A DNA stretch of 64,000 nucleotides, from assembly GCA_963826115.1 (NCBI GenBank), contig CAWGVS010000006.1:992001-1056000 (forward strand). Reading direction: 5' to 3'. Shown in pieces: positions 1 to 20,016 of the stretch. Every line of letters begins with the position of its first letter. Within the stretch, counting starts at the first letter, position 1. Source of the DNA: an uncultured Candidatus Rokubacteria bacterium (GTDB lineage Bacteria; Methylomirabilota; Methylomirabilia; Rokubacteriales; DASRDR01). The notes beneath the pieces are model-generated. The model saw nothing but the letters and a program-made list of their open reading frames with translations, was not told the DNA's origin and ran no database searches. The translations under genes were made by a program, and so were the position numbers.

Positions 1-2
1 TC

Positions 3-230
3 CTCCTGGCGGTCGTGCCCGGCGTGCGCGAGAAGCGCGAGCGGCTGTCGGCGATCCCGGGGAGCATCCCCGCGCCGTCGGCGATGCCCACGGGGTGCCG
101 CTTCCACCCTCGCTGCCCGGACGCCATCCCGCTCTGCCGCGAGGCGGCGCCCGTTCTCGAGGCCCACGGACCCGACCGGCGGGTCCGCTGCTGGCGCGCC
201 GCCGAGCTGGCCGGCGAGGCGCGCGCGTGA
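3..230 (+). CDS. Oligopeptide/dipeptide ABC transporter ATP-binding protein, C-terminal part (5' truncated by window edge)
   Basis: oligo_HPY-type tail IPGSIP...[11 protein letters not shown]...CW; frame open from window start. Confidence 0.85.
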
Positions 231-1213
231 CCGCGCTTCTGTCGGTGGACGGGCTGGTGCGCGACTTCCCGACGCGCGAGGGCGGCTGGGCCGGACGCTC
301 GGGGAAGGTGCTGCGGGCCGTCGACGGCGTGACGTTTCACGTCGGCCCCGGGGAGACGCTCGGCCTCGTGGGCGAGAGCGGCTGCGGCAAGACCACCGTC
401 GGGCGCCTGATCCTGCGGCTCCTCCCCGTGACGGCCGGGCGCGTCGTGTTCGACGGCCGGGACGTGACGCACGTGCCCGAGCGGCAACTCCGCGAGTTCC
501 GCCGGGCGGTCCAGGCGGTCTTCCAGGACCCGTACTCGTCGCTCAACCCGCGCCTGACCGTGCGCGACATCGTGGGCGAGCCCCTCCGCAACTTCGGCGC
601 CACGCGCCGCGCCGCCGCCGCGCGGGTGGGGGAGCTCCTCGACACGGTGGGGCTGCCGCCCGACTACATGACCCGCTACCCCCACGCCTTCAGCGGCGGC
701 CAGCGGCAGCGGATCGGGATCGCGCGGGCCCTCGCGCTCGAGCCGCGGCTCCTGGTGTGCGACGAGGCCGTGTCGTCGCTGGACGTCTCCGTCCAGGCGC
801 AGGTCCTGAACCTCCTGGCGGACCTCCAGCGCCAGCTCGGGCTCGCGCTCCTCTTCATCTCCCACAACCTCGCGGTCGTGCGGCACGTGAGCCACCGCGT
901 GGCCGTCATGTACCTCGGCCGGCTCGTGGAGATCGCGCCGGAGCCGGCGATCTTCGAGCATCCCCGGCATCCGTACACGCGGGCGCTCCTCGCGGCCGTC
1001 CCCGAGGCGGACGCCGACGCGCCGCCGCCCGCGGTCCTGGCCGGCGAGATCCCGAGCCCGCTCGATCCGCCGTCCGGATGCCGCTTCCAGACGCGATGCC
1101 CCCGGGCCGAGGCGCGCTGCCGCGCGACCGAGCCCGGCTTCACCGAGGCGCAGCCCGGCCACTGGGTGCGCTGCTACTTTCCGGAGCCGGAGCCCCTGCG
1201 GCGAACGGCCTGA
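227..1213 (+). CDS. Oligopeptide/dipeptide ABC transporter ATP-binding protein (OppF/DppF-like)
   Basis: Walker A GESGCGKT, signature FSGGQRQR, Walker B LLVCDE, HPYT and Cys-rich tail; GTG start overlaps upstream TGA. Confidence 0.95.
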
Positions 1214-1222
1214 GGACCCGCG

Positions 1223-2305
1223 ATGCTCGTCGAGCGCACGCACTACTACGCCAAGCCCGGCCACGCGGCCGAGGTGCTGGCCGCCCGCCGCCGCGCGTCG
1301 GAGGTCCGGGTGGCGCTGGGCCTGCCGCACGGCCGGATTCTCGCGAAGGTCGACCGCGCCGGCGACGGTCCCGACGTGACCTGGGAGTGTGACTTCGCGG
1401 ACGCGGCCGCCCATGCTCGCGACCTCGAGGCGCGCGACCGGAGCCCGGAGTTCTCGGCCGTGCGCAAGCGGATGACGGGCCTCATCGACCGCTTCGAGCG
1501 GCTGGTGCTGGAGGGCGACGATGCGGCGGCCGACGGACCGGACCCGACGCGCCCGGTGGTCCCGGCGGAGGTGCATGTCCGGAGCGGCGGCCGCACGCTG
1601 ACCGGCTACTACTACCTCCCGCCGGGCGACGGGCCGTTTCCGGGCCTCGTCCTGAATCACGGGAGCACCGTTCATCCCGGCACGAGCGACTTCTGCCGCC
1701 CGGGCACGGCGGCCGTGCTCACGGCCTGGGGCTACGCGGTGCTGCTCCCCCACCGCCGCGGATACGGGAACTCCGCCGGTCCCACGTGGCGAGAGGACGT
1801 GGCGGCCGAGTTCGGGACACCCGAGTACGACCGGGCGCTGGCGGCGCGCCTCTCGCACGAGGCGGACGACGTCGTCGCGGCCGTCGACTGGCTCGCGGCC
1901 CGCCGCGAGATCCGCGCCGACCGGATCGCGGTGATCGGCAGCTCGTTCGGCGGCACCGTGTCGCTCCTGGCCGCGGCCCGCGCGCGCGGGCTCCGGTGCG
2001 CCGTGGACTTCGCCGGCGCGGCGATGAACTGGGAGCGGACCCCGCGGCTCCGCGAGACCATGCTGGAGGCCGCGCGGCAGCTCGCCGTGCCGCTGTGCCT
2101 CGTCCAGTCGGAGAACGACTACAGCGCGGCGCCGACGCGGGAGCTGGCCGCCGAGCTCGCTCGCCTCGGCAAGCCCCACGCGGCGCGCGTGTACCCCGCC
2201 TTCGGCCTCACCGCCGACGAGGGACACCTCTTCTTCCAGAACGGGGCGCCGATCTGGGGGCCGTGGGTGCGGACGTTCCTCGACCGCTGGCTCAAGGGGG
2301 AGTGA
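1223..2305 (+). CDS. NIPSNAP-like domain fused to dienelactone-hydrolase/alpha-beta hydrolase domain
   Basis: N-terminal ~95 aa (ERTHYYAKPG...WECDFAD) resembles a dimeric alpha/beta barrel; C-terminal NHGS, GSSFGG nucleophile elbow, END, GH. Confidence 0.75.
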   Translation: MLVERTHYYAKPGHAAEVLAARRRASEVRVALGLPHGRILAKVDRAGDGPDVTWECDFADAAAHARDLEARDRSPEFSAVRKRMTGLIDRFERLVLEGDDAAADGPDPTRPVVPAEVHVRSGGRTLTGYYYLPPGDGPFPGLVLNHGSTVHPGTSDFCRPGTAAVLTAWGYAVLLPHRRGYGNSAGPTWREDVAAEFGTPEYDRALAARLSHEADDVVAAVDWLAARREIRADRIAVIGSSFGGTVSLLAAARARGLRCAVDFAGAAMNWERTPRLRETMLEAARQLAVPLCLVQSENDYSAAPTRELAAELARLGKPHAARVYPAFGLTADEGHLFFQNGAPIWGPWVRTFLDRWLKGE

Positions 2306-2310
2306 CGCTC

Positions 2311-3069
2311 ATGCGCGGCGCGTTCCTCGAGGATCTCAGCTGGCCGGAAGCCGGCGCGCGCATCGCCGCCGGGGCGGTCGTGGTGGTGCCGGTGGGCGCC
2401 GCGGCCAAGGAGCACGGCCCCCACCTGCCGCTCCGGACCGACTATCTGATCGCGCGGGAGCTCGGACGCCGCGTGGCCGAGGCGTTGCCCGTGCTGGTCG
2501 CGCCCGTCGTCTCGTTCGGGTACTATCCCGCGTTCGTCCACTACCCGGGGAGCCAGCACCTCCGCGCCGAGACGTTCATGGCGCTCCTGACCGACGTGCT
2601 GACGGGCTTCGTCGCCCAGGGCGCGCGCCGGCTGGCCGTCGTCAACACCGGCGTCTCGACGGAGGCGCCGCTCCGGATCGTGATCCGCGACTTCTACGCG
2701 ACCCACGGCGTGCGCGTCGCGGTGGCCGACCTCGCCACGCTGGGGCGGGCGGTCCAGCCCCGGCTCCAGCAGAAGCTCGGCGGCCACGCCGACGAGCTCG
2801 AGACCTCGCTCGTCCTGGCGATCGATCCGGGCGCGGTGCGGATGGCGCGCGCCGAGCCCGACTACGGGCACCTGCCGGACCTCCCGCGCACCGTCTTCTA
2901 CCAGCCCGTCGTCTTCGACGCCGACCCCGGCTCCGGCCCCGACTGGAGCCGCACCGGCGCGCGGGGCGACCCGTCGCTCGCGACGCGCGAAGTGGGGGAG
3001 GCGGCGCTCGAGGAGATCACCCGCGAGCTGGTGGACGGCCTGGTCGCGCTCTACCCCGACATCCGGTAG
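2311..3069 (+). CDS. Creatininase/creatinine amidohydrolase family protein
   Basis: KEHGPHLP..TD, GGHADELETS, GDPSLAT motifs. Confidence 0.9.
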   Translation: MRGAFLEDLSWPEAGARIAAGAVVVVPVGAAAKEHGPHLPLRTDYLIARELGRRVAEALPVLVAPVVSFGYYPAFVHYPGSQHLRAETFMALLTDVLTGFVAQGARRLAVVNTGVSTEAPLRIVIRDFYATHGVRVAVADLATLGRAVQPRLQQKLGGHADELETSLVLAIDPGAVRMARAEPDYGHLPDLPRTVFYQPVVFDADPGSGPDWSRTGARGDPSLATREVGEAALEEITRELVDGLVALYPDIR

Positions 3070-3128
3070 CCGTTGCGCCACCACGAAGAGCCCGAGGCCG
3101 GCCGGGCGGGAGTTCGGGCGCGACCCGC

Positions 3129-4415
3129 TCAGTCGGTGGGAATAGGCGGCGGTCCTTCGCAGAGCGCGGGGAGGAGCCGGCACCGGCCCGGATCGAGGGG
3201 CCGCACGTCGAGCGGCGTCACGGCCTTCCGCCAGATCCGGACTCCCGAGTCGTCGTCGTCCGTCGCGACGAAGAAGTAGGGCCACGATGCCGCCATGTCG
3301 TCGATCGACGTGTTCAGGCCCTCGCCGAAACCAGCGGCATTGACCACACCCCATTCCGCGCCCGTGAGGGTCGCCCACACCGTGGCCTCGTCGCCGCCGA
3401 TACCGCGGCCGAGGAAGAGCCGCGACCGGAAGACGGCCATCGTCTGGAGGCGCACGACGCTGCTGAAGGGATCCTGGAGCTCGGCGGGCGTCACGTCCTC
3501 CCAGTCGAGCCCGTTGAATCGCCAGACCTGCGCTCGGTCCGGGTGATTGACGGTGCTGACGTAGAGCCGACCTCGGAACACGACCAGCGCGGTCGCGGTG
3601 GCGTTGCCCGGGTACCCGAAGCCTCCCGGCAGCAGCGCGCCGGGCAGCGCGTCGCCGTCCTCGTCGCTGGCCACCACCGGCTCCCAGTTGACCCCATCTC
3701 CGGTCCGCCAGATCTCGAGGCCCGTCAGCTCGGGTCCATCGCCCCCCGGCCGTTCCCTCGAGGAACCCACGTAGAGCTGCCCCGCGAACGTCCCGAGCAC
3801 CCCGCTGTGGTTGTTGACGGCGTCTCCGAACCCGTCCGAGACGACCGGCTCCCACGTCGCCCCGTCAGGCGTCCGCCAGATCTCGAGCGGCGCGCTGGTC
3901 GCGAGGTGGAGGCGCCCGTCGAAGGCGGCCAGGGAGGTGATCGCGGCACGGCGCCAGTTCTTGGCGGTCGGCGTGACCTCGCTCCACAGCTCGACGAAGG
4001 CGGTGACCGGGAGGCATACCGAGCGGAAGGGCACGCAGGATCGGAAGGGGACTTGCCCGGCGGTTCTCCAGACGTCCCCGTTGTCGGCGCCGATGTACAG
4101 TCGATTCTCGAAGACCGCGAGCGCCAGCGCACGCGGCGGGGCCGTACCAATCGGTGCCGGGGTCACGCCCCATGACGGGGTGACCTCTCGCCAGCGCCCG
4201 CTACCCAGCCGGGTCTTCCAGACCTCGCTGCCGCTGGCGCGGTTGGTCGTCACGACGTAGAGGTGACCATCGAAGATGGCCATGTTCCCCGTCTTGTTGT
4301 CCGGGTTGCCGAAGCCTGGCGTGTTCGCGAGGATCCACGAGTCGGCGTGGGCCGTCGAGACAAAGAGGGCTAGGACCCCCACGACAACCGCCAGTGTCCC
4401 GATGCGTGCTCGCAT
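3129..4415 (-). CDS. Secreted beta-propeller repeat protein
   Basis: Sec signal MRARIGTLAVVVGVLALFVSTAHA; repeated blades GFG(N/D)xxN...F.G.LYV....G.E(V/I)W(R/K)T.DG..W. Confidence 0.75.
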   Translation of the reverse strand: MRARIGTLAVVVGVLALFVSTAHADSWILANTPGFGNPDNKTGNMAIFDGHLYVVTTNRASGSEVWKTRLGSGRWREVTPSWGVTPAPIGTAPPRALALAVFENRLYIGADNGDVWRTAGQVPFRSCVPFRSVCLPVTAFVELWSEVTPTAKNWRRAAITSLAAFDGRLHLATSAPLEIWRTPDGATWEPVVSDGFGDAVNNHSGVLGTFAGQLYVGSSRERPGGDGPELTGLEIWRTGDGVNWEPVVASDEDGDALPGALLPGGFGYPGNATATALVVFRGRLYVSTVNHPDRAQVWRFNGLDWEDVTPAELQDPFSSVVRLQTMAVFRSRLFLGRGIGGDEATVWATLTGAEWGVVNAAGFGEGLNTSIDDMAASWPYFFVATDDDDSGVRIWRKAVTPLDVRPLDPGRCRLLPALCEGPPPIPTD

Positions 4416-4449
4416 GGCGCTTTCCGGGTGCGTTGCGGAACCGGATTCT

Positions 4450-5871
4450 CTACCGCGGTGGTGGGGGCGGCGGGGGCACCGCGCCCAGGCTCGCGTCGAG
4501 GCCGGCATCCGAGCCCGCGCGGCCCGCCGGGCTTCCCGGAGCAGGGCCTCCTGGCCCACCGCGCGCCGGGTCCGGCATCGTCTGCCAGATTGGTGTCCCG
4601 TGCCCGCTGTTGCCGCTGCGCTGGACTCCGAAGCTGCCGTCGCCGGTGTTCGTCACCGCCTCCGGTCCCGTGCTCCCGCCGCGCGACGATCCCGTCCCGC
4701 CCTCCGTGCCCTGACCATCCGGATTGATGCCAGGCTGGGTTGTCTGCTGGCGGATCGTTGTACGGATGTCTTCGCGGGGATTCAGGCAACCGTGGATGGG
4801 CGCCCAGTGGCAACCGTCGTTGCGTCCCGTGCCGGCGGCGGGATCTTCGCGGGGCTGAGAATCCGATCCGCCGGTGTGGCGAGAGTGACGGCCGCCGACG
4901 ATCGAGCCCTTGAGCTCCCTCACGATTCGCCCATCCGAGGCCCTCTCCGCACCGTACCAGCTCCCGTTCCCGGCGCCGTCCACCTCCTCGTGGTAGTGGG
5001 TGGTGCCGTTGGAGTCGGACCCGTCCACGATCACCGTGTGGCCCCCGTCTCTGAAGGAAAACCGTTCACTGACACTCTTCGTGCCGTTCGGCTCCGTCGT
5101 GACGGTAGTGTCGCGACTTCCGTTCTCGTGGGAGCTGGTTTCGTGGGTGGTCGTCTGACCGTCCTCGTTCCTGGACGGAGGGTCCGTCGATTCGCTGGTC
5201 TGCTTGCCGATCCTCGATTCGGCTCGCTGGCGCGGGGTGCTGGACGGGCCGTCTCCGCTTGCCGCTCCTCCGGGATTACCCAAGGCGCCCCCCAGCGTGG
5301 GAGGGCCGCCCATCCGATCGGCGGCATTGCCGGAGCCGAAGCCGCCACCGGCCTCGTCGAGGCAGCCCTGGGGATTGGGGAAGCAGTCACGGCCGACACC
5401 GGTACCCTGGTGGCCGGGCGGCTCGCTGACCCGACCGGTGCCGAGCGTCCGGGGGAGCCCCCCGTCCTCCGTTCCTGCGGGCCGGCCGCGCTGGAGCGGA
5501 TCCCGGTTCAGCTGCTCAAGCTGCTTGAGGTCGCGGATCGCGTCCAGCTGGTTGGCGTCGCGGAGCGTGGGGTCGATCCCGGGGACCGCGGCGGCCGGGA
5601 GTGTCGGGACGGTGGGCCCGGCCGCCGGCGCTCCCGGGCCGGCCTTGGGTCCCGAGACCCCTGGCCCGCTGCCCGGCGGAGCCGGAGGCGGAACCGGCTT
5701 GGCGGTCGGCGGCGTCACGACGTTGGGCTGGGTGAGTGGCTTGACGGCGTCGCTCTGGATCGCCGGCGCCGGAGTCTGTGACTGAATGGTCGACGGAGCC
5801 TTCGGCGGATCGGCGGCGATCGCGGGGGTGACGAGCAGCAGGACAAGGGCCGAGAGGACGAGAGTTGACAT
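4450..5871 (-). CDS. Secreted Pro/Gly-rich protein, tandem paralog A
   Basis: RBS GGAGG before ATG 5871; signal peptide MSTLVLSALVLLLVTPAIA; clear paralog of 5990-7426. Confidence 0.85.
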   Translation of the reverse strand: MSTLVLSALVLLLVTPAIAADPPKAPSTIQSQTPAPAIQSDAVKPLTQPNVVTPPTAKPVPPPAPPGSGPGVSGPKAGPGAPAAGPTVPTLPAAAVPGIDPTLRDANQLDAIRDLKQLEQLNRDPLQRGRPAGTEDGGLPRTLGTGRVSEPPGHQGTGVGRDCFPNPQGCLDEAGGGFGSGNAADRMGGPPTLGGALGNPGGAASGDGPSSTPRQRAESRIGKQTSESTDPPSRNEDGQTTTHETSSHENGSRDTTVTTEPNGTKSVSERFSFRDGGHTVIVDGSDSNGTTHYHEEVDGAGNGSWYGAERASDGRIVRELKGSIVGGRHSRHTGGSDSQPREDPAAGTGRNDGCHWAPIHGCLNPREDIRTTIRQQTTQPGINPDGQGTEGGTGSSRGGSTGPEAVTNTGDGSFGVQRSGNSGHGTPIWQTMPDPARGGPGGPAPGSPAGRAGSDAGLDASLGAVPPPPPPPR

Positions 5872-7420
5872 TTCGACCTCCAGGAAGCCCGTCGTCCCGT
5901 CTTGAGCGGGGCGGGCACCGGTCCGACTCAACCCGCGCATGAATACGTACATCGGCCGATGTGGCATGTGTGCGGCGGAGACCCTCCGTTCAGCGCGGCG
6001 GGGGCGGTGGCGGCACCGCGCCCAGGCTCGCGTCGAGGCCGGCGTCCGAGCCCGCGCGGCCCGCCGGGCTTCCCGGAGCGGGGCCTCCCGGCCCGCCGCG
6101 CGCCGGATCCGGCATCGTCTGCCAGATCGGGGTCCCGTGGCCGCTGTTGCCGCTGCGCTGGACCCCGAAGCTGCCGTCGCCGGTGTTCGTCACGGCCTCG
6201 GGCCCCGTGCTCCCGCCGCGCGACGATCCCGTCCCGCCCTCCGTGCCTTGACCGTCCGGGTTGATGCCAGGCTGGGTGGTCTGCTGGCGGATCGTGGTTC
6301 GGATGTCTTCGCGGGGATTCAGGCAACCGTGGATGGGCGCCCAGTTGCAACCGTCGTTGCGTCCCGTGCCCGCGTTCGGGTCCTCGCGTGGCTGGGAGTC
6401 CGGCCCGCCACTAGCGAACACATGTCGCCCCCCGACGATCGAGCCCTTCTGTTCCGTCAAGACCCTTCCATCAGGCTCCCTGATCACCATGTACCAGCCG
6501 CCGTTGCCGTTCCCGTCTGTCTCGGAATGATAGTGGGCAGTCCCCTGGTCGGCGTCGGTTCGGTCATTGATGTGCGTGCGACTGCCGTCCTTGAACGAGA
6601 ACTCCTCGTCGAGCTCGCCGTTCCCGTTTTGGTCCTCCGTGTGGGTTGCCGTGCGGGTTCCGTTCTCGTAGTCTTCTCCCGACTGCGTCGTGGTGGTCTC
6701 ACTGTCGGTGTGGGTGCTTGACACTTGAACGCTCGTGTTCGCTCCCAGCTTCGCGTCGGCTCGCTGACGTACGTTGGGGCCCTCGCCGCCGTCCCCGCTG
6801 GCGGCTGCCCCCGGATTGCCCAGAGCACCACCCAAGGTGGGAGGGCCGCCGAGGCCACCGCCCGGGGCGGACCCGAACCGGTCCCTGGCTCCGCGGCCGA
6901 GGCAGCTCACTGGATTGTTGACGCAGTCGCGACCGAAGCCTGCCGGCCGCTGGTGGTCGGATGGCGCCCCCAGCTGTCCCCGGCCAAGGGTCTGGGGTAG
7001 CCCCTCGCTCTGACCCGCGGGCCGGCCGCGCTGGAGCGGATCCCGGTTCAGCTGCTCGAGCTGCTTGAGGTCGCGGATCGCGTCCATCTGGTTGGCGTCG
7101 CGGATGGTGCTGCCGAGCTTCGGGTCGATCCCGGGCGTGCCAGCGGCCGGGATCGTCGGGACGGTGGGCCCGGCCGCCGGCGCTCCCGGGCCGGCCTTGG
7201 GCCCCGAGACCCCCGGCCCACTGGCTGGCGGAGCCGGAGGCGGGACCGGCTTGGCGGTTGGCGGCGTCACGACGTTGGGCTGCGTGAGTGGCTTGACGGC
7301 GTCGCTCTGGATCGCCGGGCCCGGGCCCTGCGACTGGGTCGCCGTCGGGACCTTCGGCGGATCGGCGGCGTGCGCGGGGGCGGTGACGAGGAGCAGGACG
7401 AGGGCCGAGAGGACGAGCAT
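4476..7420. repeat. Tandem gene duplication (~1.5 kb units) with conserved ends and divergent middle
   Basis: ~4476-4860 matches ~6012-6400 and ~5480-5860 matches ~7020-7420; the middles align only at protein level. Confidence 0.9.
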
Positions 7421-7426
7421 CATCAT
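5990..7426 (-). CDS. Secreted Pro/Gly-rich protein, tandem paralog B
   Basis: RBS AGGAGG; signal peptide MMMLVLSALVLLLVTAPAHA; differences from paralog A in the C-terminal part are almost all synonymous, which supports this frame. Confidence 0.85.
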   Translation of the reverse strand: MMMLVLSALVLLLVTAPAHAADPPKVPTATQSQGPGPAIQSDAVKPLTQPNVVTPPTAKPVPPPAPPASGPGVSGPKAGPGAPAAGPTVPTIPAAGTPGIDPKLGSTIRDANQMDAIRDLKQLEQLNRDPLQRGRPAGQSEGLPQTLGRGQLGAPSDHQRPAGFGRDCVNNPVSCLGRGARDRFGSAPGGGLGGPPTLGGALGNPGAAASGDGGEGPNVRQRADAKLGANTSVQVSSTHTDSETTTTQSGEDYENGTRTATHTEDQNGNGELDEEFSFKDGSRTHINDRTDADQGTAHYHSETDGNGNGGWYMVIREPDGRVLTEQKGSIVGGRHVFASGGPDSQPREDPNAGTGRNDGCNWAPIHGCLNPREDIRTTIRQQTTQPGINPDGQGTEGGTGSSRGGSTGPEAVTNTGDGSFGVQRSGNSGHGTPIWQTMPDPARGGPGGPAPGSPAGRAGSDAGLDASLGAVPPPPPPR

Positions 7427-7503
7427 GCCGGCCTCCTGGGAACCCGCCATCCCGTACCGGGACGGTCGGGATTTCCCTGACTACACCCTGTCCGGCGGCC
7501 CAG

Positions 7504-7634
7504 TGTCAATACGCATGCCTCTCTGGCTTGCGCAGGGCGTCACAAGCGCCCGACGGACCAGGCCGCCCTCGTCTGGGACGCGTGGTCAGGGCCACGCGTC
7601 GCCACTTGACACGACACCGCCGCGAGGGTGAACT
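7504..7634. promoter_or_regulatory. Divergent sigma70-like promoter region with a 9-bp inverted repeat
   Basis: TTGACA on minus strand (7504-7509) and on plus strand (7606-7611, N17, weak -10 TGAACT); GACGCGTGG-N6-CCACGCGTC at 7577-7600. Confidence 0.45.
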
Positions 7635-7708
7635 GGCGCCGCCGAAGCAGGGCTGCGAGCGCCTCGCCGGTCGAGGGGGCGAGCCACGTCCCTCGCCGGC
7701 CGCGCCGC

Positions 7709-9025
7709 ATGGTGCCGACACGCCTTGTGTTCTTGGTGCTGGTGGCCTGTACGCTCGCGTCGCCGGCGTGGGCGCAGGAGGTCGACTTCGTCGACACGCC
7801 GGCCGGCCGGGCGTTCAAGGCCCAGCAGTACGAGGTGGCGCTCGCGGAGCTCGAGCGCATGCTCGCCGCGAACCCCCGGAACGCGTTGGCGGTCCGTTAT
7901 CTCGGGATCACGCTGGACCGGCTCGGGCGCTATCGCGAGGCGGTGGACATCTACCGGCGCGCGCTCGCGCTCGAGCCCGACAGCGCGGCGACCTACTTCC
8001 ACCTCGGGGTGACCTACTACAAGGCCAGGGAGCCGGAGCTTGCGCGGGCGAGCTTTGACCGGGCCGGCCAGCTCGCGCCGGAGTCGCTCTACGAGCAGAT
8101 GGCGCGTCGCTACCTCGACGCCCTCGCGGAGCAGCAAGTGGAGCTCCAGCGGCCTGGGGCGCCGAGGCTCTTCTCGCTCTTCGCGGACGTCGGCGTGCAG
8201 TACGACTCGAACATCCCGGCGGCTCCGAGCGGCGCCGGCCTGTTCGACGGCAAGCGCGGCGGGGCTCGAGTCGTCGAGTACGTGTCGGCGGAGCTGCGGC
8301 TTCTCAGGAGCCCTGGCTGGCTCGGGCTGGTCGAGGGCTCCACGTACCAGGCCCAGTATCCGGACAGCGCCTTCGACGGGTTCGGCATCGCGACGTATGG
8401 TCTCGGGGCCTTTCTCCAGCGCGACACCACGATCGGGGAACGGGCGCTGATCTTCTCGGCCCGGTACAACTACAACTGGGTCTTTCTCGACGGGGACACG
8501 TACAGCGGCTCCCACGTCGCCACCGCGAGCGCGCAGCTGGACGAGGCGCGGTGGACGGCGACCAACGTCTACTACCGATATACGCGGGACGACTTCGAGG
8601 ACGAGGGATTCGATCCGGCCGTCTCCTCGCGCGACGCGGACAATCACGCGGTCGGTGTGACGCAGATCCTGTACTTCGCCGACCGAAAGGGCCAGTTTCG
8701 CATCGGCTACGAGTACCAGACGAACCAGGCGCGAGGGCAGAACTTCGATTTCGACGGCCACAAGGTCACGGTCTCGGCGAGCGTGCCGCTGCCGGGCGCG
8801 ATCCAGGCGGAGCTGGCCGCCGACTACGGTCGCGAGCGATACGCGAGCTTCCAGGGACCCGCACGGCGCGAGACGGACCGGTGGGGGATTCGGACCAGCC
8901 TGGCTCGCTGGTTTGGCCCGTTTCTCCTCCGGCTGACGGGGGCGTGGACCACCGAACAGTCGAGCTATGATGTCCTCGAGTACGAACGCTGGGTTGTCGG
9001 GGTGAGCGCCAGCTATGCATATTGA
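7709..9025 (+). CDS. TPR + outer-membrane beta-barrel protein (Slam/DUF560-like)
   Basis: Signal peptide ending AWA; TPR motifs (YLGITL...EAVDIYRRALALEP, YFHLGVTYY); YDSNI at barrel start; amphipathic Tyr-rich strands; C-terminal beta-signal GVSASYAY. Confidence 0.75.
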   Translation: MVPTRLVFLVLVACTLASPAWAQEVDFVDTPAGRAFKAQQYEVALAELERMLAANPRNALAVRYLGITLDRLGRYREAVDIYRRALALEPDSAATYFHLGVTYYKAREPELARASFDRAGQLAPESLYEQMARRYLDALAEQQVELQRPGAPRLFSLFADVGVQYDSNIPAAPSGAGLFDGKRGGARVVEYVSAELRLLRSPGWLGLVEGSTYQAQYPDSAFDGFGIATYGLGAFLQRDTTIGERALIFSARYNYNWVFLDGDTYSGSHVATASAQLDEARWTATNVYYRYTRDDFEDEGFDPAVSSRDADNHAVGVTQILYFADRKGQFRIGYEYQTNQARGQNFDFDGHKVTVSASVPLPGAIQAELAADYGRERYASFQGPARRETDRWGIRTSLARWFGPFLLRLTGAWTTEQSSYDVLEYERWVVGVSASYAY

Positions 9026-9518
9026 GCTCTGCCGTTCGTGGCGTCCGATGAGGGCCATGGCGTGCGGCGGCGCGTTGGCGATGCTGGTCACGGCGCTGCC
9101 GTCGGAGGTGTCGTGGGCCCAGGGCGCGGTCGGCGGTGTGACGCGGTCCCCGGACGAGGTCATCGACGTCTCCCTCGGCGCGATCGAGGGGCCCGTCCTC
9201 CAGCCCATCTGGGTTCCCCCGGGAACGCCGCGGGGGATACCGGCGTCCCCGCCCTACAAGCAGGAGCCTCCGGCCGCGCAGCGGGATTTCCGAGCCCTGT
9301 CGTCGACGGGGTCGGTGCCGCCGCCGAATCCGGGCAAGGGCGGCGGCCAGCCCGGTGGCGGAACGGGGGGCGGCTCGGCCGGCCCACCGGGGCAATTTCC
9401 CCCCGGGCAGTTTCCACCACCCAACATCGATCCCACGCCGCCGAACGTCGGACTTCCTCCGCCGGGTCCTGGTCTTCCGCCGCCCGGACCCTTCCTGCGC
9501 CCCGCCCGCGTGCGATAG
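9015..9518 (+). CDS. Small secreted Pro-rich hypothetical protein
   Basis: Overlaps the barrel gene stop; signal-like ALAMLVTALPSEVSWAQ; PPGQFPPGQFPP repeat; start uncertain. Confidence 0.55.
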   Translation: MHIELCRSWRPMRAMACGGALAMLVTALPSEVSWAQGAVGGVTRSPDEVIDVSLGAIEGPVLQPIWVPPGTPRGIPASPPYKQEPPAAQRDFRALSSTGSVPPPNPGKGGGQPGGGTGGGSAGPPGQFPPGQFPPPNIDPTPPNVGLPPPGPGLPPPGPFLRPARVR

Positions 9519-9606
9519 GGAGCCTCCGCGCACCCACGCCCCGCGGGAGCGCGTGCGCGTGCTGCCGGCGTGGGCAGGCCTCGTTGCTCCTCTAGGAGGG
9601 ATGCGA

Positions 9607-10392
9607 ATGGACCTCGGTCTCCAGGGCAAGGCTGCGATCATTACCGGCGGCAGTGACGGCCTCGGCCTGGCCACGGCGCGGCGCCTGGCGGCCGAGGGGG
9701 CGGCGGTGGCGATCTGCGGGCGCGACGCGGCGCGCCTCGCGCGCGCCGCGGAGACGCTACGGGCGGACGGCGCGCCCGTGCTCGACGTTCACTGCGACGT
9801 CACGCGTCCCGAAGATCTCGAGCGGCTCGTGGGATCGGCCGTCGAGCGGTTCGGCCGGGTCGACATCCTTATCAACAACGCCGGCACGTCGGCGGCCCGC
9901 GGCTTCGACACCGTGGACGACGCGGCATGGCAGGCCGATCTCGAGCTCAAGCTCTTCGGCGCCGTGCGCTGCGTGCGGCTCTGCGTGCCTCACATGCGCC
10001 GCCACGGCGGCGGCCGCATCGTGAACATCCTGAACACGGGCGCCAAGACGCCCGGCGCGCGCTCGATGCCCACCTCGGTGAGCCGCGCCGCGGGGCTCGC
10101 GCTCACGAAGGCGCTCTCGAAGGAGCTGGCGCCGGACGGCATCCTCGTCAACGCCGTCTGCATCGGGCTGGTCAAGAGCGGCCAGTGGGAGCGGAGCTGG
10201 GCCAAGGAGGGCCGCCCGGGCACGCTCGACGCCTACTACGAGCGCCTGGCCCGGGAGCGCGGGGTCCCCGTCGGCCGTATCGGCGAGGCCGACGAGCTCG
10301 GGGCCCTGGTGGCGTTCCTGGTCTCCGCGCCCGCCGCGTTCATCACGGGCGTCGCCATCAACTTCGACGGCGGCAATTCCGCCGTCGTCTGA
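9607..10392 (+). CDS. SDR family oxidoreductase (atypical active site)
   Basis: TGGSDGLG, NNAG; YxxxK replaced by TSVSR; RBS AGGAGG. Confidence 0.9.
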   Translation: MDLGLQGKAAIITGGSDGLGLATARRLAAEGAAVAICGRDAARLARAAETLRADGAPVLDVHCDVTRPEDLERLVGSAVERFGRVDILINNAGTSAARGFDTVDDAAWQADLELKLFGAVRCVRLCVPHMRRHGGGRIVNILNTGAKTPGARSMPTSVSRAAGLALTKALSKELAPDGILVNAVCIGLVKSGQWERSWAKEGRPGTLDAYYERLARERGVPVGRIGEADELGALVAFLVSAPAAFITGVAINFDGGNSAVV

Positions 10393-10404
10393 GGCGGTCG
10401 GGCG

Positions 10405-12219
10405 TCAACGGCGGACGCGGTACACGCGCGCCCCCGTCGACTCGAAGACCAGGTCGAGGCCAGGCGGGGCCGGCGCCGGAACGCGGAAGCCCTCGACGCC
10501 GTCGGTCACGTCCAGGACGTGGGTGAACGCGAGCTGGTCGAGCTGCGCCAGCGCCGCAGGTAGATCGTGCACGCCGTCGACCGGCCGCTCGCCGTATGGC
10601 CCCACGAGCTTCACGTAGTCGTGGTGGAGAAAGTAGGGCGGCGGACTCGGGCCGAGGATCAGAACCCGGCAGGGCGCGGGCATCCGGTTCAGGTATGCGA
10701 ACGCGTCGGCGTAGGGGACTCTCTCTCGCCAGCGGGCCTCGTCGCGGCGGCCATCGAGCACGCTCGCGGCGGCGGGCACATAGGTCCGGGCGAGGACGGC
10801 CGCACCGTAGGCCACGGAGATCGCCAGCGCCAGGACCCACGCGAACCGGGCCCGCCGGCCGTGGCGCCTTGCGAGTGCGCTCGCCCCGGCCACTGCCAGG
10901 GCCGTCGTCAGGATCACCACCGGCGCGAGAAAGCGCGACTCCTGCTGGGCGAAGAACCAAGCCAGAGTGTTGAGGCCGATCCACAGCACGGCATAGCGCA
11001 CCGCCCGGTGACGCCAGCGGACGAGCCCCGCTGGGAAGAAGGCGAGCGGCACCACCCCGATGCCGCCCGCGCCGTGGAAGCGATGCGCGTGGTAGGTGTA
11101 GCGGAAGGGCAGGAGCGCCAGGTCCCACGCGGTCCGGCCGAACCCCCGGCCCCGCACTTCGAGGTAGCGCACCCAGTCGACGCTCGCGTCGGCCGGGAAC
11201 GCTCGGGGCCGGCCCAGCCGCGCGAGTGCGGGCGTGGGTGGATAGATCGGGACGCCGAGGATCAGGTAGTTCCGGAGATAGAAGGGGAGCGCCACCACCG
11301 CGGCCAACGCCGCCGCCTCGGCGGCCAGCCCGATCGCCTCGCGCGCGCCGCTCCGGCGCCAACGATGTACCAGCGCCAGGGCGAGGGTGATCGGCGCCAT
11401 CATCAGGCCGTTGTACTTCGTGCCCATCGCGAGGCCGAGGAACAGGGCGCCGACCCGGAACCACCCGCGAGACGCTCGGTCCTCGAGGAGGAGCCTCACC
11501 GCGGCGAGGACGAAGCCCGCATACTCGAGATCGACGAAGGCGACGGTCACGAGGTCCGTGAGGGCCGGCATCGTGGCGACGAGCAGCGCGGCCGCGGCTG
11601 CCCATGCCGCCCCGGCGCCGAGCCAGCGGACGAGCCCCGCGGCCTGCACGACCACCGCCGAGCCGAGCAGGAGCCCGACGACCCCCGGCGCCCGCTCGTT
11701 GGCGAGCGCCATCCCGGCCCCGAACAGGAGCTCGACGACTGCCGGGAAGGCGGTGTGGGACATGTCGAGAACCGGCTCGATGCGACCGTGGCGCAGCCAC
11801 ATCGCCGGTCCGAGCAGGTGATACGAGATCCCGTCGTGGCCGATGTTGCCGACGGGCCGGGCCAGGGAGGCCAGGACCAGGACGAGGAGCGCCGGGGCCA
11901 GAACGAGCCACACGAGCGAACGGGGCGGCTCGAGGGCGCGGAACGTCGCGGCGAGCGCGGTGCGCTCGGCCCGGGGCAGCATCGGAAGCAGGCCGGCGGC
12001 GGCGCAGACCGCGACGGTGAGGGCCGAGAACCAGAGCTGCCCGACGAGGAACAACCCGACCGCTTCGGCGCCCGCCCCCGCCAGGACGGACAGGGCGAGC
12101 GTCTCCGCGGCGCCGAGCCCGGCGCGGACCGGGCGGAGGAGCCGAAACCCCAGCGTGGTCCAGGTCAGGCCGAGGAACGCGACCGCGCCGAGCGCCCACA
12201 GACTCTCGACGATGATCAT
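10405..12219 (-). CDS. Multi-pass membrane GT-C fold glycosyltransferase-like protein (PMT/ArnT-like)
   Basis: >10 TM segments, D..SYHL luminal loop, GTKYNG, YLRN...G.PIYP, RF motif, soluble C-terminal tail. Confidence 0.7.
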   Translation of the reverse strand: MIIVESLWALGAVAFLGLTWTTLGFRLLRPVRAGLGAAETLALSVLAGAGAEAVGLFLVGQLWFSALTVAVCAAAGLLPMLPRAERTALAATFRALEPPRSLVWLVLAPALLVLVLASLARPVGNIGHDGISYHLLGPAMWLRHGRIEPVLDMSHTAFPAVVELLFGAGMALANERAPGVVGLLLGSAVVVQAAGLVRWLGAGAAWAAAAALLVATMPALTDLVTVAFVDLEYAGFVLAAVRLLLEDRASRGWFRVGALFLGLAMGTKYNGLMMAPITLALALVHRWRRSGAREAIGLAAEAAALAAVVALPFYLRNYLILGVPIYPPTPALARLGRPRAFPADASVDWVRYLEVRGRGFGRTAWDLALLPFRYTYHAHRFHGAGGIGVVPLAFFPAGLVRWRHRAVRYAVLWIGLNTLAWFFAQQESRFLAPVVILTTALAVAGASALARRHGRRARFAWVLALAISVAYGAAVLARTYVPAAASVLDGRRDEARWRERVPYADAFAYLNRMPAPCRVLILGPSPPPYFLHHDYVKLVGPYGERPVDGVHDLPAALAQLDQLAFTHVLDVTDGVEGFRVPAPAPPGLDLVFESTGARVYRVRR

Positions 12220-12419
12220 CCGCCGGCGAGAAGACTTCGGAGGTGGGTGAAGGTCTCAGAGCTCGCGACGCGCTCCCAGAGGAAGCCCGCGGCCACGCCG
12301 AGCGCCCACAGGACGAGGATGGGATCGATCCAGCCGTCCAGGCGACGCGGGGTCTCGCCGGAGCCGATGCTCGATCGCACTGCCTCCGGACGACGGGCGG
12401 GGCCGACCGCCTCGCTCAT
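12216..12419 (-). CDS. Small single-TM protein translationally coupled to the GT-C gene
   Basis: 67 aa, one hydrophobic helix (ILVLWALGVAAGFLW); ATGA overlap with the downstream start. Confidence 0.5.
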   Translation of the reverse strand: MSEAVGPARRPEAVRSSIGSGETPRRLDGWIDPILVLWALGVAAGFLWERVASSETFTHLRSLLAGG

Positions 12420-12685
12420 CGAGTCAGGAGGCTCTCGCCGGACGAGGCGCGGTCGCGCCCGTCGGTCGGTCCCCGCGAGTGCGTAGCGCATCCCGCGAAC
12501 GCCGAGCAAGAGGAGACGGCGCACTCGGCGGGCGATCGGTCGCCTTGCCCCACGCGTCTGAGGGTGATGTATCGTGGGAGTAGGGATCGAGCCGACACTC
12601 CTCTCGACCCCGGAGCGGCACCGCGACATGATCGCGTCTGTCTGACCGGGGTCACCCACCTCCGAGCGCCGACGGAGCCGGGTGC

Positions 12686-13063
12686 ATGCTGCAGCTTGAC
12701 GAGATGCTGAGGGGCGTGCGGTACCTTGGGCAGATCCCCCGCTTCCTCCGGCAGCCGCTCGGCGCGGACGAGGTCTGGTCCCTCCTCCATCGCCGCTTCG
12801 AGCGCCGGGCGGCCGACTTCCTCAGCTTCCTCCCCGCCGTCAGCTCGGCGGGCCCGCCGACGAATCATCCCTACCGGCGGCTCCTCGCGCTGTCCACGTG
12901 TGAGTACCAAGACGTGGAGAAGTTGGTCGACGGGAAGGGCGCCGAGGGTGCGCTCCAGGCGCCGGCGCCTCGGGCGGATTCGTCGGCCGCATCCCGTCCT
13001 AGCCACCGTCAACGATCCCGGCCGATTCTACCCTGGGCCGGTTTCGTGCGGGAGGAAGGGTGA
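12686..13063 (+). pseudogene. Probable truncated gene remnant (N-terminal fragment)
   Basis: Protein-like for ~90 aa (PYRRLL...CEYQDVEKLV..KG.EGALQ), then degenerates; isolated in a long intergenic region. Confidence 0.4.
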
Positions 13064-13367
13064 CAGCCCGTGTCTCGACGCCTTCGTGATCTCCGTGGTG
13101 CGTCTGCCCACGTGCTGTTGCGGCGAAGCCACCGACTTCCAGCTGGTGGCGCGGGACGAGGCCGTCGACTCCCGCCTGGGGCTCAGGCTCGCGTCTGCCC
13201 CGAGGTCAGCACGGTCGGCCCGGCACGGAGCGTGTAATGGGACTCCTGTGGCAGGATACCCGCGTGGTTCGCCTCGAGTGCCGGCCGCCGTTCACGACCG
13301 CGACGGGAGATAGCCTCGACTTCCACGGCGAGAGGCACGGGTCGCGCGCGGCCCAGGTAGGAGCGGG

Positions 13368-16070
13368 ATGACCAAGTACGTCTACTTCTTCGGGGCGGGC
13401 CGCGCCGAGGGCTCCTCGGTGATGCGCAACCTCCTCGGCGGCAAGGGCTGCGAGCTCGCCGAGATGACGAACCTCGGCATCCCGGTGCCGCCCGGCTTCA
13501 CCATCACGACGCAGGCCTGGGTCCACCGCCAGCGTGCCGGGCGGACGTGGCCGGATGGGCTGTGGGAGCAGATCCTGGAGCACCTCCAGCGCCTCGAGCA
13601 GGTGGCCGACGCGCGGTTCGGCGATCCCGAGCGCCCGCTCCTCGTGTCGGTCCGGTCGGGCGCCCGCGTCTCGATGCCCGGGATGATGGAGACCATCCTG
13701 AACCTCGGACTCAACGACGCGAGCGTCGAGGGGCTGGCGGCGCGCACGGGCAACGAGCGCTTCGCCTGGGACTGCTACCGCCGCTTCATCACGATGTTCT
13801 CGAGCGTGGTCCTCGGAGTGAAGCGCGAGATCTTCGCCGAGCACCTCGACGCCATGAAGGCGCGTCTGGGCGTCGCGGACGCCGGCGTCCCCGCCGGAGA
13901 GCTGCGGAAGCTCGTGCAGGCGTATCACGAGGAGATCGTGGCTCGGACCGGGAGCGCGTTCCCCCAGGACGTGCGCGAGCAGCTCCGTCTCGCGGTCGAC
14001 TCCGTCTTCGATTCCTGGCACGCGAAGAAGGCGACGGAGTACCGCCGCATCCACGGCGTGCCCGAGGAGTGGGGCACCGCGGTGACGGTCATGGCCATGG
14101 TGTTCGGGAACCTCGGCGAGACCTCGGGGACCGGGGTCGGCTTCACGCGGGACCCGCGCACCGGAGAGTCGCGCTTCTACGCGGAGTTCCTGCCGAACGC
14201 CCAGGGCGAGGACGTGGTGGCGGGCATCCGGACCCCGCTCCCGATCGAAGCGCTTCGGGACCGGATGCCACCGGTGTACGCCGAGCTCATCGAGATCGCC
14301 ACGCGGCTCGAGCGGCACTACAAGGACATGCAGGACATCGAGTTCACGGTCCAGGAGGGCAAGCTCTACCTCCTGCAGACCCGGGGGGGGAAGCGCTCGG
14401 CGCGCGCAGCGGTGCGAGTGGCGGTCGACCTCGAGAAGGAGCACGTGATCGACCAGCACACCGCAATCCTCCGGGTGAAACCGCACGAGGTGAACGAGGC
14501 CATCCGCCCGGTCTTCGACGACCGGGAGAAGGCGGCCGCCATCGCGGCGGGGCGGCTCCTCGGGCGCGGGCTGGCGGCGGCGCCGGGCGCGGCGGTGGGC
14601 CGGGTGGTGTTCGACGCCGACCGGGCCGTCGAGTGGGTCAAGAACGGGCAGCACGTGATTCTGGTCCGGCCGGAGACGTCGCCCGAGGACGTGACGGGGA
14701 TGTACGCGGCGGAGGGTGTCGTCACCTCGCGCGGCGGCCGCACGTCGCACGCGGCCGTGGTCGCGGTGGGTATGGGCAAGGCATGCGTCGTCGGCGCCGC
14801 GGAGCTGGTGATCGACGAGGCCGCGCGTCGGTTCGACGTGGGCGGTCGCACCGTTCGCGAGGGCGACGTCATCTCGGTGGATGGCGGGACCGGCGAGGTC
14901 ATCGCGGACACGATCCGGACCGTCGAGGGGCGGATTGACGAGCAGATGCGGGAGCTCCTCGGGTGGGCCGACTTCTACCGCAAGGGCGGCCTCGGCGTTC
15001 GGGCCAACGCCGACACGCCGGCCGACGCCGAGCGCGCCCGCGAGTTCGGCGCCGAGGGCATCGGTCTGGTCCGTACCGAGCACATGTTCTTCGCGGCCGA
15101 ACGGCTGCCGATCGTCCGGGAGATGATCATGGCGACGGACCAGGCCGCCCGCCGCGCGGCGCTCGAGCGCCTCCGGCCGGTCCAGCGCCTGGACTTCGCC
15201 GGCATCTTCCGGGCGATGCACGGCCTCCCGGTCACCATCCGTCTCCTCGACCCGCCGCTCCACGAGTTCCTGCCGAACTGGAAGGAATACAAGGAGATGG
15301 TGGCCGAGAAGAGCCGCCTCGAGACCCTCGGCATCGAGCCCGAGGAGCAGCAACGCCTCGAGGCGATGATCGTCGCGGTGGAGCGGCTCCGCGAGGCGAA
15401 CCCGATGCTCGGGCACCGGGGGTGCCGGCTCGGCATCACGCACCCCGAGATCTACGGGATGCAGGTGCGCGCGATCATGGAGGCGGCGTGCGCCGCCGCC
15501 GAGCAGGGCGTCCGCGTGGAGCCCGAGATCATGATCCCGCTCACCGGCACCGTCGGCGAGATGAAGGAGACCTTCGAGCAGACCCGCCGGGTGGCCGACG
15601 GCGTCATCGCCGAGATGGGCGTGCAGGTGCCCTACCTCGTCGGCACCATGATCGAGGTGCCGCGCGCGGCGATCATCGCGCAGAAGATCGCCGAGTACGC
15701 CGAGTTCTTCTCGTTCGGGACCAACGATCTCACGCAGCTCACGTTCGGGTACAGCCGCGACGACGTGGCGAAGTTCCTGCCTCGCTACCTCGACATGGGG
15801 CTCGTGCCCGCCGACCCCTTCGCGGTGCTGGACCAGGAGGGGGTGGGCGAGCTGATCGCCCTGGGGATCGACCGCGGGCGCCGGCGCCGGCCCGACCTGA
15901 AGGTCGGGATCTGCGGAGAGCACGGCGGCGAGGCCTCGTCGGTGGAGTTCTGCCACAAGGTCGGCATGAACTATGTCTCGTGCTCCCCGTACCTCATTCC
16001 CGGCGCGCGGCTGGCCGCCGCGCAGGCCCGGATCCGGGAGCGGCTCGCCGGCGGGGGTGACCATCGCTAG
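13368..16070 (+). CDS. ppdK: Pyruvate, phosphate dikinase
   Basis: LLGGKG, PLLVSVRSGA..SMPGMM, phospho-His motif GG.TSHAAVVA, GTNDLTQ, GICGEHGG. Confidence 0.98.
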   Translation: MTKYVYFFGAGRAEGSSVMRNLLGGKGCELAEMTNLGIPVPPGFTITTQAWVHRQRAGRTWPDGLWEQILEHLQRLEQVADARFGDPERPLLVSVRSGARVSMPGMMETILNLGLNDASVEGLAARTGNERFAWDCYRRFITMFSSVVLGVKREIFAEHLDAMKARLGVADAGVPAGELRKLVQAYHEEIVARTGSAFPQDVREQLRLAVDSVFDSWHAKKATEYRRIHGVPEEWGTAVTVMAMVFGNLGETSGTGVGFTRDPRTGESRFYAEFLPNAQGEDVVAGIRTPLPIEALRDRMPPVYAELIEIATRLERHYKDMQDIEFTVQEGKLYLLQTRGGKRSARAAVRVAVDLEKEHVIDQHTAILRVKPHEVNEAIRPVFDDREKAAAIAAGRLLGRGLAAAPGAAVGRVVFDADRAVEWVKNGQHVILVRPETSPEDVTGMYAAEGVVTSRGGRTSHAAVVAVGMGKACVVGAAELVIDEAARRFDVGGRTVREGDVISVDGGTGEVIADTIRTVEGRIDEQMRELLGWADFYRKGGLGVRANADTPADAERAREFGAEGIGLVRTEHMFFAAERLPIVREMIMATDQAARRAALERLRPVQRLDFAGIFRAMHGLPVTIRLLDPPLHEFLPNWKEYKEMVAEKSRLETLGIEPEEQQRLEAMIVAVERLREANPMLGHRGCRLGITHPEIYGMQVRAIMEAACAAAEQGVRVEPEIMIPLTGTVGEMKETFEQTRRVADGVIAEMGVQVPYLVGTMIEVPRAAIIAQKIAEYAEFFSFGTNDLTQLTFGYSRDDVAKFLPRYLDMGLVPADPFAVLDQEGVGELIALGIDRGRRRRPDLKVGICGEHGGEASSVEFCHKVGMNYVSCSPYLIPGARLAAAQARIRERLAGGGDHR

Positions 16071-16112
16071 GCCGCCGCGCTTCTCGGCGCGGACCACGGG
16101 CGAGCCCGGCCG

Positions 16113-17165
16113 ATGAGCGTGCGCTTCGGCCTCAGCGTGCCGAACCGGGGCCTCGTCATCGGGGCGGGGAACCCGAAGGACCTGGTCGCGATGTGCGAGG
16201 CCGCCGACGCCTCGGAACTCTTCGACGCCGTCTTCACCGGCGACAACCTGGTCTCGAAGCCCCGCCTCGACGCCATCGTCTTCCTCTCGCTGGTCGCCGG
16301 ACGGACCCGCCGCGTCACGCTCGGGACCGCCTGCATGGCGAGCTTCGTCTTCCGTCACCCGATCGTCCTGGCCAACCAGTGGGCCGCCCTCGACTACCTG
16401 AGCGACGGGCGCACGCTCCTCGTGGCGTGCATCGGGGGCGGACCGGACACGCGCCGGGGGCCGCCCTCGCCGAGCGGGGCGAAGTGGGCGACGGAGTTCG
16501 CGGCCATGGGCGTGCCGGTCGCCGAGCGCGTCGGCCGGATGGTCGAGGGGATGGCGATCCTGCGGGCGCTCTGGACCGGGGAGTCGGTCACGCACCACGG
16601 CCGCTTCTACCGGTTCGACGACGTGCGGATCCACGTGACGCCGGTGCAGCACCCCTGTCCGATCGCGATCGCGTCGAATCCGCGGCCGCCCCACGCGGAC
16701 GAGGCCACGATCGACCGGGCGCTCCGGCGCGTGGGCGAGATCGGGGACGGCTGGCAGGTCGAGATGAGCACGCCCGAGGAGTTCGGCGAGCGCTGGACGC
16801 GGATCCGGAGCTACGCGCGCGCCGCCGGGCGGAGCCCGCTGCCGGACGCCTCGATGATCCACTTCTACGTGAACGTCCAGGACCGGAGCCAGGCCGCCTT
16901 CGACGAGGCGCGCCGCTTCTACGAGGCGTACCACCTGGGGACGTTCCCGGAGGACTACCTCCGGTGGCGGCTCGTCACCGGCACGCCGACCGAGGTCACC
17001 GAGCGGCTGGCCGGCTTTCTCGACGCGGGCTGCACCTTGCCCATCCTCCGATTCGCGAGCTGGGACCCGGCGGGCCAGATGCGGCGGGCGATGGCCACCG
17101 TGCTGCCCGCCCTCCGCGACCACGCCGCGCGCCTCGCGGCGCGGCCGATCGAGTCGGGCCGGTAG
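16113..17165 (+). CDS. LLM-class flavin-dependent oxidoreductase
   Basis: FGLSVPNRG, T.RVTLGT, ALDYLSDGR, H.GRFY. Confidence 0.9.
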   Translation: MSVRFGLSVPNRGLVIGAGNPKDLVAMCEAADASELFDAVFTGDNLVSKPRLDAIVFLSLVAGRTRRVTLGTACMASFVFRHPIVLANQWAALDYLSDGRTLLVACIGGGPDTRRGPPSPSGAKWATEFAAMGVPVAERVGRMVEGMAILRALWTGESVTHHGRFYRFDDVRIHVTPVQHPCPIAIASNPRPPHADEATIDRALRRVGEIGDGWQVEMSTPEEFGERWTRIRSYARAAGRSPLPDASMIHFYVNVQDRSQAAFDEARRFYEAYHLGTFPEDYLRWRLVTGTPTEVTERLAGFLDAGCTLPILRFASWDPAGQMRRAMATVLPALRDHAARLAARPIESGR

Positions 17166-17187
17166 GCGGGACCCGTCGACGGCGCCG

Positions 17188-18488: not shown

Positions 18489-18657
18489 CGTCGATCCTCC
18501 CGGTGATCCCGCGCGCGTCACGCTCCGGCGAACGGGCCGAGGCGCCGGCGGATGGTCCGACCCGGTACGCTAGGACGCCGGCGGCGCCGGGACAAGGACC
18601 ACCCTGCGGCGACGGGCAGGGCCATGTGCCGGCCGGCCCGCGCCGTTCCGTCGGGGG

Positions 18658-19350: not shown

Positions 19351-19357
19351 GAATCCA

Positions 19358-19792: not shown

Positions 19793-19853
19793 CGGCGTCA
19801 CCTCGATGCGCGGCAGCCTCGTGGGCCGCGGCGTGATTGGGTGACCGATGGCA

Positions 19854-19974: not shown

Positions 19975-20016
19975 CGCGAACGTGTAGGCGCTGCCGCGCG
20001 CGTGACGCCGTCGTCG

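Follow-up and report, generated by a model that had tools for sequence, protein, structure and literature searches.

A Slam-like barrel and a partner predicted to thread its lumen in a secreted-protein locus of an uncultured Rokubacteria bacterium

Introduction

What does an outer-membrane barrel carry when its gene overlaps that of a small Pro-rich protein and lies back to back with genes for three other secreted proteins? This question is raised by a five-gene block (positions 3129–9518) in a 64,000-nucleotide stretch of DNA, here called the window, from an uncultured Candidatus Rokubacteria bacterium (contig CAWGVS010000006.1, positions 992,001–1,056,000, assembly GCA_963826115.1). An earlier note on this DNA had read the block as an export or assembly locus for a new cargo class, built on a barrel resembling Slam, the outer-membrane component of the type XI secretion system (T11SS). 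According to 10.1101/2024.09.26.615229 no cargo is known for the majority of T11SS barrels, and the engagement of substrates by Slam-type pores and their gating are listed as an open question in PMC13721041. Our analysis favours a two-gene unit of barrel and threaded partner, with the barrel likely also exporting two paralogous secreted proteins as clients. The probability of this reading is put at roughly 0.45.

The barrel and its overlapping partner

The barrel gene (7709–9025, + strand) encodes a Slam/DUF560-like outer-membrane protein with a signal peptide, a TPR region, a 14-strand barrel and a C-terminal Tyr (YAY). The AlphaFold model, made with 23 relatives, contains a signal helix, six TPR-region helices (residues 31–144) and 14 strands (residues 155–437) at a predicted local distance difference test score (pLDDT) of 87.5. 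These seven helices and 14 strands agree with the Slam-like TPR-barrel proposed earlier, and Slam itself is defined by an N-terminal TPR domain and a 14-strand barrel (PMC5449769). TPR families of Pfam match the protein above cut-off, and TPR_Slam reaches 20 bits (cut-off 35.2). When SlipAM (PF04575) was compared with DUF2860 and BBP2 by hidden Markov model (HMM), as the earlier note had suggested, SlipAM was the only barrel family that matched the window barrel, although its 17.2 bits are under the cut-off of 22. Among 23 family members, eight match SlipAM (best E 6e-9), seven BBP2_2 and four DUF2860, and the relative at locus L041, 39% identical to the window barrel, scores 32.7 bits with SlipAM, which is above cut-off. 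The closest folds are the 14-strand monomers CymA (Z 22.6, root-mean-square deviation 3.2, 265 residues aligned) and OmpG (Z 20.7), with sequence identities of 9–10%. BcsC, OmpG and PelB rank at the top in Foldseek, all with low template-modelling (TM) scores; no Slam chain appears in the fold-search lists, which excludes nothing. Taken together, these results probably place the barrel within the Slam superfamily, as a distant member. A lipobox-like LVAC was found in the window barrel and in no other of the 26 family members, so it is not conserved.

Polysaccharide-export barrels of the PgaA, BcsC and PelB type have 16 strands. Such a barrel, named in the earlier note as a possible alternative, was rejected because the window barrel has only 14 strands and a short TPR region, with Foldseek TM scores of 0.35–0.42. 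No polysaccharide synthase gene is conserved near the related barrel loci.

The small partner ORF (9015–9518, + strand, 167 aa) encodes a Pro-rich secreted protein, and its start codon lies within the last codons of the barrel gene. The gene positions, with an overlap of 11 nt, bear out the earlier description of a barrel gene that ends in YAY, overlaps a Pro-rich ORF and is divergent from the paralog and propeller genes. Fourteen related barrel loci were collected, of which 12 extend downstream, and a partner domain of ~55 aa is encoded directly 3′ of the barrel in all 12 (10 distinct). The record titles of these pairs name Rokuibacteriota, Nitrospirae, Polaromonas and Gammaproteobacteria, and L069, the sole new locus reached from the partner side, has a barrel upstream. 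The partner ATG precedes the barrel stop by 11 nt in 14/14 close loci. The codon that forms the overlap is TAT in all 13 distinct barrel genes, where TAT makes up 12–69% of the other Tyr codons, and the first residues forced by the overlap occur in 32 of 63 partner representatives versus 31 of 1890 genome ORFs. These 63 representatives were retained from 66 proteins found by profile search, after P0059, P0115 and P0123 had been dropped as repeats.

The partner family shares a signal peptide, the ~55-aa domain and a tail with a median of 41 residues and 28% Pro (59 measured). No lipobox was found in any of the 63 relatives; 58 of them are no longer than 200 aa and five are longer. In some relatives the ~55-aa domain comes after a FecR domain; such fusions are above the Pfam cut-off in L003 and L012, and four fused forms weakly match the LapA retention-module HMM NF033682 (19–31 bits, cut-off 50). 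The window's own partner has neither a FecR domain nor an NF033682 match. Searching ESM Atlas with the partner returned three unnamed clusters at 0.80–0.81, which is chance level. The literature found gives no description of the partner family in the parts consulted, and the supplements of 10.1101/2024.09.26.615229 and PMC8406197 may list the barrel clade. As judged from these sequence comparisons, the one invariant neighbour of the barrel is its small Pro-rich ORF and neither a paralog nor the propeller.

The predicted barrel–partner complex

The complex of barrel and partner was predicted with a score of 0.78, while the best of three controls scored 0.00. Of 157 solved pairs 116 reach the mark used for such scores, as do 2 of 215 mismatched pairs; these counts apply roughly here, where our own alignments were used. 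The prediction runs share at least 87% of their contacts, with a partner pLDDT of at least 73. A partner helix (residues 47–60, 9153–9194, + strand) is predicted to lie in the TPR groove, and the following segment (residues 61–93, 9195–9293, + strand) is predicted to run along the barrel lumen to the outer loops. In the model this segment contacts each of the 14 strands, at alternating residues that face the lumen, as well as the outer loops L1 and L4–L7. Barrel residues at the interface are better conserved than those elsewhere (0.75 versus 0.64, P 2e-4; near-invariant positions, 34 of 71). PDB searches gave no comparable complex. From the model, the partner probably runs through the barrel lumen and serves as its plug or as a tether.

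The paralogs and the propeller

Divergent from the barrel are the genes of paralog A (5990–7426, − strand, 478 aa) and paralog B (4450–5871, − strand, 473 aa), the latter with GGAGG 7 nt 5′ of its ATG. Paralog B consists of a signal peptide, a Pro/Gly N-block, a variable core rich in Thr, Ser, Asp and Glu (~4846–5244) and a conserved C-block. Paralog A has the same layout, with its core (~6383–6784) between two conserved Cys pairs. The two are 78% identical in the N-block, 49% in the core and 98% in the C-block, and in the five-member family the mean pairwise identity is 0.5–0.85 in the flanks and 0.17–0.39 in the core. One contig of metagenome run X6 aligns at 5477–5766, and its first 490 letters do not align. 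The paralogs have no Pfam or NCBIfam match, and ESM Atlas returned nothing for the paralog queried. A MAFFT alignment made remote homology to the Pro-rich proteins beside barrels L005, L009 and L015 seem plausible; it was rejected, as the profile scores were negative and equalled by 2, 30 and 14 of 100 block shuffles, with a BLASTP E of 0.84.

A possible link between paralogs and barrel lies at the paralog C-terminus. With a position-specific scoring matrix of the partner's TPR-docking helix, the C-termini of both paralogs score 8.2 (1/200 shuffles), and the look-alike is located at 4468–4509 (− strand) in paralog B and at 6005–6046 (− strand, residues 461–474) in paralog A. Three other barrel-adjacent secreted proteins score 11.1, 14.7 and 14.9 (0/200 shuffles each). 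Scores of at least 8 occur in 4 of 13 accessory families; across the genome 55 of 3524 ORFs reach this score, in 12 cases close to the C-terminus, and the binomial P is 7e-5 for 4/15, in which two related pairs are counted separately. The luminal motif of the partner does not stand out in any of 20 accessory sequences (best 8/200 shuffles). The helix look-alike is suggestive only, as a lead for a shared docking signal. Slam has been proposed to recognise a C-terminal motif of its unfolded cargo (PMC9090332), and a C-terminal signal formed by the paralog helix would parallel this proposal. We infer that the paralogs may be exported through the barrel.

The last gene of the divergent arm (3129–4415, − strand) encodes a secreted protein of 428 aa, which AlphaFold models as a β-propeller of ~7 blades (pLDDT 86.7), as the earlier note had read it. 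The Foldseek matches listed for it are propellers only. A long hairpin is inserted in the protein, which ends in a Cys-x7-Cys/Pro tail (3129–3190). Its relatives carry precomputed PF25852 annotations, with weak matches to DUF6242, and the last 30 aa contain a Cys pair in 14/14 close and 3/11 distant propeller relatives. A terminal Cys-x(3–9)-Cys knob within Pro-rich sequence was seen in 14/14 close propellers and also in 24/63 partners.

The block as an insertion

All five ORFs are genuine genes. Their GC content at third codon positions is 0.82–0.89 versus 0.65–0.71 in the long frames of the opposite strand, and the opposite-strand ORFs 4276–5781 and 5939–6721 were discarded on codon composition. 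By a hydrophobicity heuristic each of the five proteins has a single N-terminal hydrophobic stretch (11-residue mean 2.1–3.3) with an AxA-type end and no further membrane segment after it. ORFs, composition and hydrophobic stretches thus agree with the five signal-peptide genes of the earlier note, and the creatininase and short-chain dehydrogenase/reductase (SDR) genes on either side are the unrelated metabolic flanks it had described.

Creatininase loci were compared in 10 of the 12 cases listed for the genus, with G201 and the distant G123 paralog omitted. The creatininase–SDR gap is 79–113 bp in seven loci, 571 and 788 bp in two, and 4.5 kb, filled with unrelated genes, in one; in the window it is 6.5 kb. 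By this comparison the five-gene block is an insertion of 6.5 kb that separates the two metabolic genes. No target-site repeat longer than 7 nt was found at its ends. The barrel was not found in the 14 same-genus genomes searched, and 250 other genomes of the phylum gave two matches for the partner and none for the propeller or the paralog. The barrel had no match in plasmids and the partner none in viral contigs.

Short contigs of the soil-metagenome run X6 (~90% identity) bridge paralog A and barrel (7294–8667), propeller and paralog B (4168–4498), and creatininase and propeller (3029–3477). Relatives of barrel (P0006), paralog (P0031) and propeller (P0127) each lie on a Joint Genome Institute contig of 18,482 nt, a coincidence that is indirect evidence that the block recurs elsewhere. 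The linkage of paralogs and propeller to the barrel rests on this shared contig size and on the short bridging contigs. Bins 5110–5360 had no cover in four runs and were not used as evidence.

The divergent intergenic region (7427–7708) contains outward TTGACA hexamers at 7504–7509 (− strand) and 7606–7611 (+ strand); six copies across the window versus 4.4 by chance are no excess. A promoter scan gave no full sigma-70 site and no convincing terminator, and Rfam gave no match within window 1–16000. The host genome (6.2 Mb, 72% GC) contains Omp85 and Skp/OmpH genes.

Proposed mechanism and alternatives

The pairing, the overlap, the signal peptides and the fold model of the barrel are taken as the firm first step of a mechanism. 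The periplasmic TPR domain is predicted to grip the partner by its acidic helix DxxIDxxLGALxxP. This helix is followed by 33 residues with PYKQ[QE]PPxAQxDF at their end, which are predicted to line the outer loops and every one of the 14 strands. The tail, rich in Pro and often capped by Cys, would then exit on the outer side. In the FecR-fused partners the FecR domain may be held in the periplasm as a stopper, much like the LapA retention module. With less confidence, the largely unstructured paralogs might use the helix copy at their C-terminus to dock at the same TPR site; having displaced the plug, they would thread out C-terminus first and expose their variable cores outside. The propeller, globular and lacking the helix motif, would be a co-inherited accessory.

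Several points weigh against this mechanism. All claims of binding rest on a model, and the outward direction of the tail is derived from its contact list. A filled lumen, as modelled, would block other exports unless the plug is displaced, and two secretin genes in the host offer a possible alternative exit. The window barrel itself falls below the SlipAM cut-off, and the related barrel of L041 has no partner gene. The helix look-alike is missing from 9/13 accessory families including the propeller, two paralog relatives score just 3.6 (9 and 14 of 200 shuffles), and two of the four look-alikes had been spotted by eye ahead of the test. That acidic amphipathic helices can score by chance is shown by a cytoplasmic anthranilate-synthase-like protein, which at 20.1 is the top non-partner match in the genome. 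The gene linkage that the earlier note had set as a check was seen for secreted neighbours in general, which do occur in other genomes, but not for the particular families: none of the 13 closest barrel loci has a relative of the paralogs or the propeller next to it.

On another reading, unlikely in our estimate, the barrel serves the small partner alone as the fixed surface anchor of a Pro-rich stalk, with paralogs and propeller staying in the periplasm or leaving by another way and only travelling with the unit or binding to it. The partner is the sole invariant neighbour, the lumen is predicted to be full and secretins are at hand; the remaining neighbours vary by locus, from a radical SAM protein with a Tat-exported Cys-rich protein (L002, L004, L069) to an S8 peptidase and unrelated Pro-rich proteins. 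An anchor of this kind, however, would explain neither why the five genes form one insertion, three of which recur together, nor why all five members of the paralog family end in a helix look-alike. The occurrence of the partner fused to FecR brings up a trans-envelope sensor of the FecR/TPR-barrel/CHASE2-cyclase kind that has lost FecR, its tail sensing outside and its threaded chain signalling inward. Clusters of TPR, FecR and CHASE2 cyclase genes are described in PMC9239204, in L044, L045 and L051 a FecR protein comes after a distant barrel of 540 aa, in the same order, and a cyclase match is found in 3/11 distant barrel loci. We consider such a sensor improbable, since tblastn found no cyclase in the 14 close loci, several of them on short contigs, or in window 1–20000, 58/63 partner relatives are too short for a FecR domain, and the three FecR genes of the host lie elsewhere, two of them adjoining cyclases.

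The remaining explanations concern what the pore conducts. CymA as the best fold match and a partner that fills the lumen in the model would fit a gated solute channel whose plug is given in trans by the small protein, yet identity is at most 10%, the TPR domain and SlipAM similarity favour protein clients and conserved genes for transport or catabolism are lacking nearby, which makes a solute channel very unlikely. Hardly more can be said for a classical T11SS barrel that exports paralogs and propeller as cargo, the small ORF being incidental. It would account for the Slam architecture and the adjacent secreted genes, and translocation of unfolded cargo by Slam has been described (PMC9090332); against it, the small ORF is conserved, translationally coupled and the predicted binding partner, and the paralogs end in Pro/Gly sequence rather than an 8-strand barrel. 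The preferred unit of barrel and threaded partner could also be viewed, more doubtfully, as an undescribed T11SS branch with a barrel plugged at rest by its own co-translated peptide, the acidic helix of which would mark the binding site on the TPR domain. Disordered variable-core proteins with this helix at their C-terminus would compete for the site, eject the plug and be exported, and a 14-residue helix would replace the 8-strand-barrel signal. If this were true, the complex would be a stable view of a client within a Slam-type lumen.

Comparison with known systems

The barrel family shares with Slam/DUF560 (PF04575 SlipAM and PF24575) the TPR domain and 14 strands of the model, weak to passing SlipAM scores, secreted neighbours and a host with Skp. 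It differs in that no cargo ending in an 8-strand barrel was seen, in the constant overlapping partner of ~15 kDa predicted to occupy TPR domain and lumen, and in its occurrence in Methylomirabilota, Nitrospirota and Gamma- and Betaproteobacteria records with no iron or TonB context seen. By sequence the paralogs contain no 8-strand barrel; like the partner, they have Pro/Gly C-termini and no Pfam match. The constant partner is the small ORF. The lack of a lipid anchor, put forward as a novelty, is not new: unlipidated T11SS cargo is already represented by HrpC, HphA and Hpl, and Cluster 3 T11SS are mostly also without 8-strand-barrel cargo (both 10.1101/2024.09.26.615229). What would be new here is cargo without an 8-strand barrel together with a partner predicted to fill the lumen.

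Barrels with 25–30% identity also precede FecR proteins in FecR/TPR-barrel/CHASE2 modules, with which NsrA of Sinorhizobium is grouped here, and the partner also occurs FecR-fused. However, the 55-aa threading domain is absent from the 11 distant loci scanned, and the close loci have no cyclase and mostly no FecR. The modelled arrangement resembles the LapA retention module in the LapE pore, where a periplasmic stopper likewise holds a chain in an outer-membrane pore (10.1101/198937). LapA uses a type I secretion system with a TolC-like trimer, whereas Sec export and a monomeric 14-strand barrel are found here; no RTX, LapG or LapD was seen, and the FecR-like domain is far under the NF033682 cut-off. 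CymA and OmpG have the same 14-strand fold without TPR, and any plug in the present system is a separate gene product.

In this locus a small barrel–client pair has been modelled confidently, down to individual contact residues. The locus also offers a candidate for a short targeting signal and possibly a minimal two-gene surface-display anchor. The widespread barrel and FecR pairs would gain a concrete geometry of periplasmic stopper, luminal thread and outer tail. If the paralogs are exported, an unstudied route for exporting or displaying floppy proteins would be at hand.

Further observations at related loci and in the window

A radical SAM/SPASM maturase gene lies directly upstream of the barrel in L002 (5311–7890), L004 (2746–5302) and L069 (9815–12135). 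It is closest to TIGR04463 and TIGR04334, below cut-off. Also directly upstream of the barrel, the same three loci encode a twin-arginine protein with Cys repeats and a tail rich in Pro, possibly a large exported ranthipeptide-type substrate. In L004, ECF sigma factor, zf-HC2 anti-sigma and S8 peptidase genes (3–2617) lie ahead of the secreted-gene cluster of the barrel locus. A second barrel, the partner-less one of L041 (7447–12829, G168), stands opposite a lipoprotein of 1163 aa. This lipoprotein has an SH3-like stretch and, close to its C-terminus, a look-alike of the helix.

In the FecR-fused partners L003, L012, P0096 and P0122 the FecR domain retains a Gly-Thr pair, presumably the kind of site that is self-cleaving in FecR/FoxR. 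Elsewhere in the host, L083 and L084 (C5 and C11) show a 1229-aa FecR-TPR-type ORF and a barrel and FecR pair, with an adenylate-cyclase-like gene beside each. Between the SDR and pyruvate phosphate dikinase genes of the window, 10405–13063 contains a small ORF together with the gene of a GT-C-like membrane protein of 603 aa. The GT-C-like protein has no match in 10 same-genus loci, which makes this region a second variable site. Upstream of the block, 1223–2305 encodes an alpha/beta hydrolase with an additional ~90-aa N-terminal domain, which is conserved in the genus.

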